Source: Rickettsiella endosymbiont of Miltochrista miniata (lineage in GTDB: Bacteria; Pseudomonadota; Gammaproteobacteria; Diplorickettsiales; Diplorickettsiaceae). From it: a stretch of DNA of 64,000 bases. Shown here in pieces: positions 61,482 through 63,970 of this stretch. The translations under genes were made by a program, and so were the position numbers. The notes beneath the pieces were generated by a model. The model was not told the origin of the DNA, did no database searches, and saw nothing but the letters and a program-made list of their open reading frames with translations. The stretch spans positions 215,402-279,401 of the forward strand of contig NZ_OZ035017.1 of the NCBI RefSeq assembly GCF_964031245.1, given 5' to 3'. Every line of letters begins with the position of its first letter. Positions within the stretch are counted from its first letter, which is position 1.

Positions 61482-61979
61482 TTGCCCATGAATTTATTTA
61501 ATTATTCTACATGGAGTTTGTTTTTTACCACTATTTTGCAAGCTGTAGCCGGATATACCTGTCCTAATATAGCCACGATTAACTCAAGAATAGATGCAAA
61601 TAAAACCATGCGATTCCCATTAGCGCAGTGTGTTATCCCAACACGTCGAGGTTATGCTTGGCTTTACAGAGACCATACTAATCAAATTAAAAAATTTTAT
61701 AACGGAGACAGTCATGCAGCAGAAATTGTTTCTATATGGTATCAAAAACCCACCCCTTTTATAAGTCCATTCTTAACTTGCTTTTATAAAGATAAAAACA
61801 AAAAGTTTTTTTCTTTATTAATGGGAGATAAAGGAACCTCGCGAGTCAATACTTCAGCGATAGAAGCTAATTGTAAGCACTGGAAAATATTTCACAGTGA
61901 TGGTCTCTATGTTTGCGGAGAGGAAACGGATGTCAAAAAAGATCTAAAAAAGTGCCAGTTTTATCTTAAGTCCCGTTGA
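61482..61979 (+). CDS. Small secreted Cys-containing protein, paralog 1 of 4 (likely start at the second Met, 61488)
   Basis: Signal peptide ...ILQAVAG|YTCPN; conserved MRFPL, KKFYNG, TC.YKD, YVCGE and KCQFYLK motifs shared with paralogs 2 and 4. Confidence 0.6.
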   Translation: MPMNLFNYSTWSLFFTTILQAVAGYTCPNIATINSRIDANKTMRFPLAQCVIPTRRGYAWLYRDHTNQIKKFYNGDSHAAEIVSIWYQKPTPFISPFLTCFYKDKNKKFFSLLMGDKGTSRVNTSAIEANCKHWKIFHSDGLYVCGEETDVKKDLKKCQFYLKSR

Positions 61980-62073
61980 AATATAAGGAGGTGAACCTAA
62001 AAACATACTAATTAAGCAGGATTGTTATTATAAAAAATATTATCAATTATTAAAATTATTAAAAGGAAAATTT

Positions 62074-62550
62074 ATGAAAATATTGAATTATTCTACTTGG
62101 TATTTATTATTTACGACTATTTTACAAGCGGTATCAGGATATACTTGTCCTAATATTACGGAGATTAATAAAAAAATAGATGCTAAAGAACCCATGCGTT
62201 TCCCACTTGTAGAAGGGGAACGTCCATTTTGGCGTTACAAAGATTTTAATAATCGAATTAAAAAATTTTATAATGGAACCGCTAGAGCAACAGAAATTGG
62301 AGCCATATATTATCAAGAACCATTAGAAAATATAAACTCATCATTAACGTGTATTTATAAAGATGGTCAATCAATGTTTTTTTCTTTGGCGGCTGCAAAG
62401 AAAAGGGTTGATGGAGTGAATTCTTCATCGATTACGAACGATGAAAATTGGAGTCGATTTTATCGTGATGGTATTTATTCTTGCGGTGACGATAATCAAC
62501 CTAAAGAAAGTATAGATATGTGTCAATTTAGTCTCAAAATTTCGCGTTAA
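62074..62550 (+). CDS. Small secreted Cys-containing protein, paralog 2 of 4
   Basis: MKILNYSTWYLLFTTILQAVSG|YTCPN...KKFYNG...TCIYKD...YSCGDD...MCQFSLK. Confidence 0.6.
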   Translation: MKILNYSTWYLLFTTILQAVSGYTCPNITEINKKIDAKEPMRFPLVEGERPFWRYKDFNNRIKKFYNGTARATEIGAIYYQEPLENINSSLTCIYKDGQSMFFSLAAAKKRVDGVNSSSITNDENWSRFYRDGIYSCGDDNQPKESIDMCQFSLKISR

Positions 62551-62554
62551 TACG

Positions 62555-62587
62555 TAATTACCTGACTGTATAATGGTCAGGTAATTA
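62555..62587 (+). other. Perfect 12-bp-stem hairpin (TAATTACCTGAC-tgtataatg-GTCAGGTAATTA) after paralog 2; possible terminator or regulatory stem-loop
   Basis: Perfect inverted repeat seen directly in the sequence. Loop contains TATAAT. Followed by AATTT rather than a clean U-run. Confidence 0.3.
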
Positions 62588-62674
62588 AATTTCAAAAATA
62601 TTCAACAATGTATAAACTAATCGTCCTATTTATGTTAAATTTTCACAGCTATAATTTTAAAAAAAGAGGTTACC

Positions 62675-63163
62675 ATGATTTTTACAAATATTTTTACTCC
62701 CGCCTTACAATTTTTCGCGGCAGTTCAATCAATTTTTACTGGTACGAACTTAAACCAGTTTTCTTGTCCAAGTACTCAACAGATTAATGAAAAAATAAAA
62801 GCGGGACAAACTATGGTATTTCCTGTTGATGGAATAGCAGGTGAAGGTTTTGAGTATCGAAATAATAATAACCAAAGGGTTCAACATTATAATAGAACTA
62901 ATGTAAAGAAACTTAATACTGTGTACTTTCAAACGAAACAGGGCGGGATAAATGCGTCCGCTAATTGCGACTATGTAGACAGAAGAGGGATACGTTTTAG
63001 TTTGGCTGCGTTACCAAACACTGTTGATAATATAGATGTCGCTAAACTGAATAGTAGTGTTTGGAGCGATTTTTTTCGCGGTGGTTTAAAGGATTGTGGT
63101 TATAACAAAATGCCAGAAGAACAAATACTTGAAGAATGTAAATTCACAATGAAAAATAACTAA
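62675..63163 (+). CDS. Small secreted Cys-containing protein, paralog 3 of 4 (most divergent member)
   Basis: Different signal peptide, but Cys spacing and motifs retained (SCPS, MVFP, NCDY, KDCGYN, ECKF). Confidence 0.5.
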   Translation: MIFTNIFTPALQFFAAVQSIFTGTNLNQFSCPSTQQINEKIKAGQTMVFPVDGIAGEGFEYRNNNNQRVQHYNRTNVKKLNTVYFQTKQGGINASANCDYVDRRGIRFSLAALPNTVDNIDVAKLNSSVWSDFFRGGLKDCGYNKMPEEQILEECKFTMKNN

Positions 63164-63191
63164 GTTTTATTCAGGGTTGAATTTTTCACAC

Positions 63192-63255
63192 AAGATTGGT
63201 TACGTATTTGACGTAACCAATTTTTTAATTTTCGTTGAAATTTGCGCTGATAAAC
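63192..63255 (+). repeat. 64-nt direct-repeat module (terminator hairpin plus GTTGAAATTTGCGCTGATAAAC leader), copy 1, between paralogs 3 and 4
   Basis: About 90% identical to 63907-63970. Confidence 0.6.
63197..63226 (+). terminator. Intrinsic terminator-like hairpin (TGGTTACGT-atttg-ACGTAACCA then A-TTTTTT) after paralog 3
   Basis: 9-bp perfect stem, 5-nt loop, T6 run; lies 34 nt after the stop codon. Confidence 0.5.
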
Positions 63256-63277
63256 TTTAAAAAGGATTTTAAATCGT

Positions 63278-63772
63278 ATGAAAATATTCAATTATTCAAC
63301 CTTGAGCCTGTTATTTACGACTATTATGCAAGCGGTTTCGGGATATACTTGTCCTAATGCCTTAACTATTAATACAAAAATTGCCGAAAATGGCATAATG
63401 AGATTTCCGCTTGCTGAAAGGAATGCCGATGCTGACAAAGTCTTTTTTTTGCGTTATAGAGGCCATAGTAATAAAATTGAAAAATTTTATGCGGGAGAGA
63501 GCAGGGTAGATAAATTTGCAGGGGCATACTACCATCCACAAACCCAAGAACTACCAGCTTCATTTACGTGTATTTATAAACAGAAAAACAATAAATATCT
63601 TGTTTTGCCTATGACAAAAAAAGGCGCAAGACGTGTTAATGCTGCAACGATTGAAAACGAGATCAATAGCAATTGGCGAGCACTTCGTGATACCGGTTTC
63701 TATGTTTGCGGAGATGATGGAATGGTTAAAGAAAATTTAGATAACTGCCAATTTTATCTCAAGCCGCGTTGA
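63278..63772 (+). CDS. Small secreted Cys-containing protein, paralog 4 of 4
   Basis: MKIFNYSTLSLLFTTIMQAVSG|YTCPN...EKFYAGES...TCIYKQ...YVCGDD...NCQFYLKPR. Confidence 0.6.
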   Translation: MKIFNYSTLSLLFTTIMQAVSGYTCPNALTINTKIAENGIMRFPLAERNADADKVFFLRYRGHSNKIEKFYAGESRVDKFAGAYYHPQTQELPASFTCIYKQKNNKYLVLPMTKKGARRVNAATIENEINSNWRALRDTGFYVCGDDGMVKENLDNCQFYLKPR

Positions 63773-63906
63773 ATTTTCATAGCTGAAAAGCTCTCATTAG
63801 CACTTACCTTTTAAGTTTTAAAGAGCGAGAGGCCTGTCCTTAATGACAATAAAAACGCATGGCTTAACAAGAGATTGTTCGGTATTGATTTACAAAATTT
63901 TTACAT

Positions 63907-63970
63907 AAGACTGGTTACGTATTTGACGTAACCAATTTTTTAATGCTTGTTGAAATTTACGTTGATAAAC
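63907..63970 (+). repeat. 64-nt direct-repeat module, copy 2, after paralog 4. It implies the tandem duplication unit is gene plus terminator plus leader, and a further paralog may follow beyond the window.
   Basis: About 90% identical to 63192-63255. Confidence 0.6.
63912..63941 (+). terminator. Second copy of the same terminator-like hairpin after paralog 4
   Basis: Identical stem-loop followed by T6; part of the duplicated 64-nt module. Confidence 0.5.

Follow-up and report, generated by a model that had tools for sequence, protein, structure and literature searches.

A four-gene array of predicted exported, cysteine-containing proteins between mfd and surA of Rickettsiella, probably a divergent branch of DUF3757

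We identified an array of four consecutive paralogous genes (T1 to T4) in a 64,000-nucleotide stretch of DNA (the window) on contig NZ_OZ035017.1 of the Rickettsiella endosymbiont of Miltochrista miniata, whose genome is 1.65 Mb in size (Legionellales, Coxiellaceae). The four products, all annotated as "hypothetical protein" in RefSeq, share a framework of four cysteines, fall into four orthogroups that keep the same order in related genomes, evolve under relaxed purifying selection, show a remote link to the Pfam family DUF3757 (PF12582) and have no known fold neighbour. We read the locus as an ancient T1-T4 array that encodes exported, disulfide-bonded binding proteins, forming a branch of DUF3757 restricted to Rickettsiella and Aquirickettsiella, and we give this reading as a whole a probability of roughly 60%.

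The list of open reading frames (ORFs) of the window contains four same-strand ORFs at 61482-61979, 62074-62550, 62675-63163 and 63278-63772, and a hidden Markov model of the family detected no more than these four copies in the 64-kb window. A sequence-only reading of the window had described four co-oriented paralogous genes with a shared cysteine framework, and both the ORF list and a four-way alignment bear out this description. The genes are as follows.

T1: 61488 to 61979, plus strand; paralog of 163 amino acids (WP_342220326.1) with six cysteines, four of the framework and an extra pair, C48/C129
T2: 62074 to 62550, plus strand; paralog of 158 amino acids (WP_342220327.1) with four cysteines
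T3: 62675 to 63163, plus strand; paralog of 162 amino acids (WP_342220328.1) in which the four framework cysteines are retained
T4: 63278 to 63772, plus strand; paralog of 164 amino acids (WP_342220329.1, P0017) with four cysteines

The start of T1, placed earlier at the TTG at 61482, is replaced here by the ATG at 61488, which is the most likely start codon because a GGAG is located 7 nucleotides (nt) upstream, orthologs begin with MKLF or MKLL and the RefSeq protein is 163 amino acids long. A purine-rich Shine-Dalgarno-like motif is present 6-11 nt 5' of every array gene. Aligned over their full length, copies 2, 3 and 4 are 53, 26 and 47% identical to copy 1, respectively, and the four-way alignment contains 28 invariant columns, including the four cysteines. 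T3 is the most diverged type, with 24-32% identity to the other three; both the alignment and the tree described below agree with its earlier designation as the oldest or most diverged branch, and its N-terminal hydrophobic segment differs from that of the other types and is uncharged. Orthologs of T2 elsewhere show 61-91% identity. The motifs AV(S/A)GYTCPN, TC(I/F)YK, Y(V/S)CG(D/E)(D/E), CQF(Y/S)LK and MRFPL, which had been quoted for the family, are all present in copies 1, 2 and 4. KKFYNG, quoted together with them, is exact in copies 1 and 2 but reads EKFYAG in copy 4, and copy 3 retains the cysteine framework only. The AT-rich setting of the array was also described correctly, with a G+C content of 28-36% across 60000-64000 versus 35-43% upstream. 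A promoter scan yielded 18 sites versus 19.4 expected from shuffled sequences, and hence no enrichment, and the window gave no hit when scanned for Rfam families or tRNAs.

Searches with T1-T4 against Pfam, NCBIfam, PADLOC and PHROGs gave no meaningful match, with no significant match to anti-phage defence or phage families in the latter two. T1-T4 had no match among PDB sequences, and PDB sequence and profile searches with A1, A3 and A4 returned chance-level matches only. A search with one paralog identified 22 clusters among 5.8 billion proteins, and a profile of 25 sequences identified 23 representatives among 1.84 billion. All named sources are Rickettsiella or Aquirickettsiella, except for three metagenome-assembled genome (MAG) records that carry no label more specific than Gammaproteobacteria, Pseudomonadota or Bacteroidota.

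A link to a described family was found via a sister subfamily, which includes R. viridis WP_126322614.1 (P0035) and proteins of tick-associated contigs (P0065, P0033, and P0038). The A2 profile, which was made from window-type sequences only, finds this subfamily, including the R. viridis protein, at E-values of 2e-16 to 1e-6, and an hhalign comparison of A2 with A4 gave a probability of 99.4% (E 2e-21) with all four cysteines aligned. The sister proteins are homologous over their full length and have the same four-cysteine framework and the same cleavage position relative to xTCP, but they are only 22-29% identical to the window family, carry classical positively charged signal peptides and are encoded by single genes at unrelated loci instead of by an array between mfd and surA. 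P0065, which NCBI names "DUF3757 domain-containing protein," matches PF12582 with 24.1 bits (E 4.7e-5, model positions 3-125 of 125), where the gathering score of the Pfam model is 23 bits. The consensus of the sister subfamily scored 27.7 bits and P0041 scored 20.3 bits, and ten shuffled controls gave zero DUF3757 matches, their best chance match being at most 16 bits. Because this hhalign-homologous sister subfamily passes the PF12582 gathering score, the window family is likely to be a very divergent branch of DUF3757. The earlier view of an undescribed family is thus only half right, although no curated model or solved structure matches the window proteins.

PF12582 is an uncharacterised family of proteins of about 120-160 amino acids, similar in size to the window proteins (158-164 amino acids with a hydrophobic N-terminus), and its members have a Sec-type signal peptide, to which the N-terminus of the window proteins may correspond. 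The whole mature domain of P0065 aligns with the Pfam model, whereas the window proteins do not match it directly. Both PF12582 and the window family occur in host-associated Proteobacteria, and a DUF3757 member of a phytopathogenic Arsenophonus is SignalP-positive and induced in planta, with higher expression in plants (PMC12090721). What sets the window family apart from PF12582 is its restriction to a genus-level clade and its tandem array of four types at a fixed locus. In the literature on DUF3757 and Rickettsiella, no functional data for this family were found.

The N-termini of the window proteins are hydrophobic, with V/A at position -3 and G/S at position -1 of the predicted cleavage site. 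In T1 the signal-peptide-like N-terminus is MNLFNYSTWSLFFTTILQAVAG, with the predicted cut directly before YTCPN. The sister subfamily has textbook signal peptides with a K/R-rich n-region and an AxA two residues ahead of the first cysteine, and its cleavage sites (SFA/MTCP, GFA/TTCP, and VFA/ATCP, with the slash marking the cut) are in the same register as those of the window types. The hydrophobic N-termini, the signal peptides of the sister subfamily in register, the even cysteine counts and the lack of a lipobox together make Sec export of T1-T4 likely, so that the secreted protein proposed earlier is plausible. A lipoprotein was rejected, as there is no lipobox ([LVI][ASTVI][GAS]C) and the residue at -1 to the first cysteine is Thr: the first cysteine is preceded by Y-T in the window types and by T-T, M-T or A-T in the sister subfamily, with AxA or VSG two residues upstream.

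Conservation of the cysteines in orthologs was checked in an alignment of 46 sequences, in which three cysteines and one tryptophan are invariant and the first cysteine is nearly invariant. The number of cysteines in the mature part is even (four or six) in every intact member, the exception being the copy in L004, which is truncated by the contig end, and the extra pair C48/C129 is conserved in T1 orthologs. The mature proteins are about 15-16 kDa and basic, with an isoelectric point (pI) of 8.3-9.5. Two AlphaFold2 models were made, one of full-length T2 with 25 sequences and one of mature T2 with 46 sequences (predicted local distance difference test 75-77, predicted template modelling score 0.71-0.73), and both comprise a helix at the N-terminus, a loop of poor definition and an antiparallel sheet that is predicted well, together with short helices. 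Fold and profile comparison with solved structures revealed no known neighbour and no OB-fold or toxin match.

To describe the array in relatives, a neighbour-joining tree was made of the family members of the window and eleven related loci; a search of genome contigs with the A2 profile gave four loci. The tree resolves four orthogroups, T1 to T4, which always occur in the order 1-2-3-4 between mfd and surA, and in every related locus fetched the gene order is mfd, array, surA (minus strand) and lptD (minus strand). Copy number varies from one to at least four, as the comparison proposed earlier now shows.

Window and L010: T1, T2, T3, and T4
L009: an N-terminal fragment, two T2 copies, T3 and T4 (the contig starts inside the array)
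L002: at least three copies (the contig starts inside the array)
L007 and L008: T1, T2, and T3
L001 and L013: T2 only
L005, L006, and L011: T4 only

A recent duplication was rejected since the four types are orthogroups common to several genomes. The short arrays carry deletion scars, which argues for repeated loss of copies from an old four-gene state. L007 matches the four-copy locus L010 collinearly through a remnant of the surA tail that lies between T3 and T4 (see below) and then runs into surA. In L007 (11180-11300), and likewise in L008, surA ends in KIQP and a stop codon rather than in KIM or KIL and a stop codon, and its extreme 3' end is remnant-like; this end is the chimera that would be expected from deletion of T4 by recombination between the 77-nt repeats described below. 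In L013 (10558-10680), surA is still preceded by a piece of the remnant, by the leader of T4 and by roughly 78 nt of the T4 gene, and L001 (about 5880-5960) retains a 5' stub of T1. Stubs or fragments of family genes were observed at these two positions and at L009 58-294, L004 7323-7532 and L002 31-213; they consist of the N-terminal 31-64 codons or of C-terminal pieces, and the short ORF in L004 matches both ends of the profile. Partial deletions have thus occurred more than once.

The ratio of non-synonymous to synonymous substitution rates (dN/dS) of ortholog pairs of T1-T4 is 0.15-0.51 (dS 0.19-0.82); gidA and mfd, compared between the same pairs of genomes, give 0.05-0.07. No 20-codon window has a dN/dS above 1, the maximum being 0.91, from a set of three sequences. 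The array genes are functional and under purifying but relaxed selection, with a non-synonymous rate several-fold above that of their neighbours. Diversifying selection, which had been suggested from the sequence, finds no support in this crude analysis and was rejected, as neither the pairwise values nor those of the 20-codon windows exceed 1. The 5' ends of three of the genes are conserved between paralogs:

61488 to 61553, plus strand; signal-segment 5' end of T1
62074 to 62139, plus strand; signal-segment 5' end of T2
63278 to 63343, plus strand; signal-segment 5' end of T4

In the N-terminal 22 residues, T1, T2 and T4 are 64-91% identical to each other (73-85% at the nucleotide level), versus 37-47% amino acid identity in the mature parts, which suggests that the 5' ends were shaped by gene conversion or recombination, or that this segment is under extra constraint. 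Which of the variants STWY and STLS is found in T2 and which in T4 differs from genome to genome.

The sequence-only reading had also described a 64-nt repeated module with a hairpin at the end of the array. The repeat and the hairpin are real, but the module is not the terminator plus leader of a duplication unit: one copy is the 3' end of surA and the other a remnant of it. The repeat is 77 nt long, and thus longer than first described, with 88% identity between 63180-63256 and 63895-63971. The features at this end of the array, together with a hairpin after T2, are:

63890 to 64000, minus strand; 3' end of surA, with the stop codon at complement 63890-63892 and the coding sequence continuing past the window edge
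63180 to 63256, no strand assigned; non-coding surA-tail remnant, of which the minus-strand reading ends in VYQRKFQRKLKNWLRQIRNQSCVKNSTLNKT and a stop codon, 88% identical to the real surA tail
62555 to 62587, plus strand; hairpin after T2 with perfect pairing (free energy, dG, -17.4 kcal/mol, z -6.5), followed by an A/T-rich tail; candidate terminator
63192 to 63224 plus tail, plus strand; hairpin in the remnant with a 14-bp stem and a T-run (dG -16.3 kcal/mol, z -4.4)
63912 to 63934, plus strand; hairpin in surA with a 9-bp stem and a T-run reaching 63943 (dG -12.7 kcal/mol, z -3.2)

The minus strand of 63890-64000 encodes the C-terminal end of SurA, which closes with VYQRKFQQALKNWLRQIRNQSYVKIL and a stop codon (also read as NVSREQAAQLVYQRKFQQALKNWLRQIRNQSYVKIL and a stop codon). 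A fifth family copy past the window edge, which had been considered, is excluded: in agreement with all related loci, the array is followed by surA on the other strand. All four-copy arrays have the remnant between T3 and T4, with 88-98% identity to surA tails, and because the proteins encoded on either side of it share only about 25% identity, it appears to be conserved in its own right. Its right end (63256) abuts the T4 ribosome-binding site, and it plausibly serves as terminator of T3 and leader of T4, the hairpin within it probably terminating T3. There is no strong hairpin between T1 and T2, and as a candidate terminator follows T2, T1 and T2 may form one transcription unit.

A consensus terminator scan gave matches at 63192-63224 and 63912-63934, and both hairpins are GC-containing stem-loops directly followed by a T-run and with a conserved structure, as is typical of intrinsic terminators. 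The hairpin in surA (TGGTTACGT-atttg-ACGTAACCA) coincides with the codons WLRQIRNQ, within the last 16 codons of the gene. In 13 sequences (ten surA tails and three remnants) 117 of the 117 pair cells are paired. One stem position is AU, GU, GC or CG through synonymous changes of Leu and Arg codons, some of which are compensatory; the codon pairs among the ten genomes are TTA/CGT, TTG/CGC and CTC/CGG. The hairpin structure within the surA codons thus appears to be under selection, on evidence that is modest but real, and the hairpin at 63912-63934 is predicted to be, and probably is, the terminator of T4 transcription. It resembles Rho-independent terminators located in the 3' end of a convergent gene, in that the predicted terminator (63912-63943) faces T4 and its pairing is kept by synonymous compensatory changes; compared with such terminators, the retention of the remnant copy as an intergenic module between T3 and T4 is an unusual re-use of a coding fragment.

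We propose that a duplication took with it the last ~25 codons of surA, the convergent gene, which would have been left as the module between T3 and T4, and that later deletions used the 77-nt repeats and the conserved 5' ends as substrates, which would yield the arrays of one, three and four or more copies in relatives. In this anatomy and evolutionary account of the locus we have high confidence.

With respect to the proteins, we propose that each array gene would be translated from its own Shine-Dalgarno site, and that the conserved N-terminal segment (MKILNYSTWSLLFTTIMQAVSG) would function as a Sec signal peptide which signal peptidase I cuts two residues before the first cysteine (G/YTCPN). 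In the periplasm the four invariant cysteines would form two disulfides, and the six cysteines of T1 three, to give a compact alpha+beta domain with the N-terminal helix packed on the antiparallel sheet. Once outside the cytoplasm, the four isoforms may serve as binding proteins without enzymatic activity, with the host interface as their most likely place of action and the envelope as a less likely one. In this scheme it is export, the cleavage site, the disulfide pairing, the location and the binding function that we infer. A host-facing binding role, which we put at slightly less than even odds, is proposed because the family is restricted to one clade, changes in copy number and evolves faster at the protein level, and because DUF3757 occurs in host-associated bacteria. 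The bolder possibility that the proteins, which have no fold neighbour in PDB, represent a structurally new class of secreted proteins with disulfide bonds that interact with the host and are specific to arthropod-associated Rickettsiella, of which the four anciently fixed isoforms bind different host targets and help to set host range or the pathogen/mutualist outcome, we consider unlikely.

Several observations weigh against the reading of the array as exported DUF3757-branch proteins. T1-T4, the window-type members among 27 proteins scanned singly and two window-type consensuses have no DUF3757 match even at an E-value of 10, and the proposed link to DUF3757 is transitive, resting on scores just above the Pfam cut-off. 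The h-region of T1, T2 and T4 is moderately hydrophobic (mean Kyte-Doolittle value of 1.55-1.74 over 12 residues) and contains polar residues, and the n-region of T3 has no positive charge. The disulfide pairing is not readable from the AlphaFold2 models. The related loci were picked by searching for the family itself, and their comparison carries no claim that every relative keeps at least one copy. Finally, the conserved position beside surA and lptD fits an envelope role as well as a host-facing role.

This position is also the basis of the strongest of the alternatives, in which the proteins are periplasm-resident envelope proteins tied to outer-membrane biogenesis that work with the surA-lptD machinery or on lipopolysaccharide (LPS) or outer-membrane proteins. 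All related loci fetched have the array between mfd and surA-lptD, the probable terminator of the last gene lies within surA and has been preserved by compensatory changes, selection is purifying, and the basic pI of 8.3-9.5 would suit binding to anionic LPS or membranes. However, the array is convergent with surA and is therefore not co-transcribed with it, and the genes of the sister subfamily are located elsewhere, next to integrase fragments in R. viridis and next to ccm genes in another contig. Core envelope machinery would not usually range in copy number from one to at least four, with either T2 or T4 as the sole survivor. The non-synonymous rates, moreover, are 3-8 times as high as in the neighbours, and the family is absent outside one genus-level clade. 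Taken together, we consider an envelope role unlikely. The decay of the array, with genes that are not exported or not functional and a hydrophobic N-terminus without a role in export, is the least probable explanation: copies have been lost in several relatives, where stubs and fragments are left, and the signal peptide is atypical, yet the four ORFs are intact and have Shine-Dalgarno motifs, each of the four types has a dN/dS well below 1 in genomes at dS 0.2-0.8, the cysteine framework is invariant and no part of the protein is better conserved than the signal-like segment.

Two further alternatives name a more specific function. The periplasmic inhibitors Ivy, MliC/PliC, PliG and ecotin are small exported cysteine-containing proteins from Gram-negative bacteria associated with animals, and the window proteins could likewise be exported inhibitors or decoys against lytic or immune proteins of the host, with four isoforms for four host targets. 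Their small size, predicted export and disulfide bonding, the arthropod-associated intracellular lifestyle, the presence of several diverged isoforms and the faster evolution compared to the housekeeping neighbours would all fit, but the likeness is one of class only; no recognisable sequence, profile or fold similarity to these lysozyme and protease inhibitors, or to AB5 B subunits, was found in T1-T4, and we regard this function as improbable. Toxin subunits or secreted effectors, for instance AB5-type binding subunits or Dot/Icm substrates, are less probable still. Rickettsiella genomes keep Dot/Icm without the known Legionella effectors (bioRxiv 10.1101/2024.12.03.626579), and the array is lineage-specific and AT-rich; the predicted Sec signal peptide, however, points to the periplasm and not to Dot/Icm translocation from the cytoplasm, the relatives, in which mfd and surA directly flank the array, have no adjacent gene for an A-subunit or enzyme, neither an OB-fold nor a toxin was matched, and the 376-amino-acid ORF next to the array is specific to this genome. 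The roles as effector, toxin, adhesin or immunity protein named in the sequence-only reading are pure speculation, with no fold or profile match in their support.

Rickettsiella are widespread arthropod pathogens and symbionts, and to our knowledge their effectors are essentially unknown. A fast-evolving family that is restricted to one clade, is predicted to be exported and has four old isoforms may reasonably be considered for functions at the host interface, and it also extends the reach of DUF3757 to sequences that current Pfam and NCBI models miss. If the proteins do form a class of host-interaction proteins, working out their function would provide the wider DUF3757 family, which occurs in plant- and insect-associated Proteobacteria, with its first functional assignment. 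The locus is in addition a small and clean example of how a fragment of a convergent essential gene (the 3' end of surA) can be carried by tandem duplication and kept as an intergenic terminator/leader module, with the resulting repeats mediating later gene loss. The find is a modest one, as it is not a new kind of system and leaves current understanding unchanged; its value lies in annotation and in the hypotheses that it offers.

Contrary to the earlier statement, the array does not directly follow mfd, since an ORF lies between them:

60139 to 61269, plus strand; ORF of 376 amino acids (WP_342220325.1, called as 352 amino acids in RefSeq)

This ORF is absent from all other fetched loci, and the distance between mfd and the first family gene is 1514 nt in the window versus 149-270 nt in the other loci. 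It has a weak Pfam match to PI_PP_C, a phosphoinositide phosphatase C-terminal domain (E 1.4e-3, 19 bits, below the cut-off of 25), and no match in PDB, PADLOC or PHROGs; it may be a lineage-specific acquired gene.

Of the contigs that carry family members, L003 (JBDKHK010000121.1) is labelled as a "Bacteroidota bacterium" MAG and L015 (JAPYLC010000270.1), which encodes P0065, as a MAG of a "Rickettsia endosymbiont of Ixodes persulcatus"; given the distribution of the family, both are probably mis-binned Rickettsiella-like contigs. In R. viridis (L014; AP018005.1, 653234-669692) the sister gene is located beside fragmented phage-integrase ORFs and a P22 Cro-like gene, at about 5 kb from a gene for an Ntox11-domain protein, which suggests a mobile-element remnant context. 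P0029, a 260-amino-acid protein from an ENA metagenome, has a Ser/Thr-rich N-terminal extension of 120 residues before a T3-like domain, and a duplicated PST-x-x-(I/L)N-KKI-x-EK motif is present ahead of this domain.

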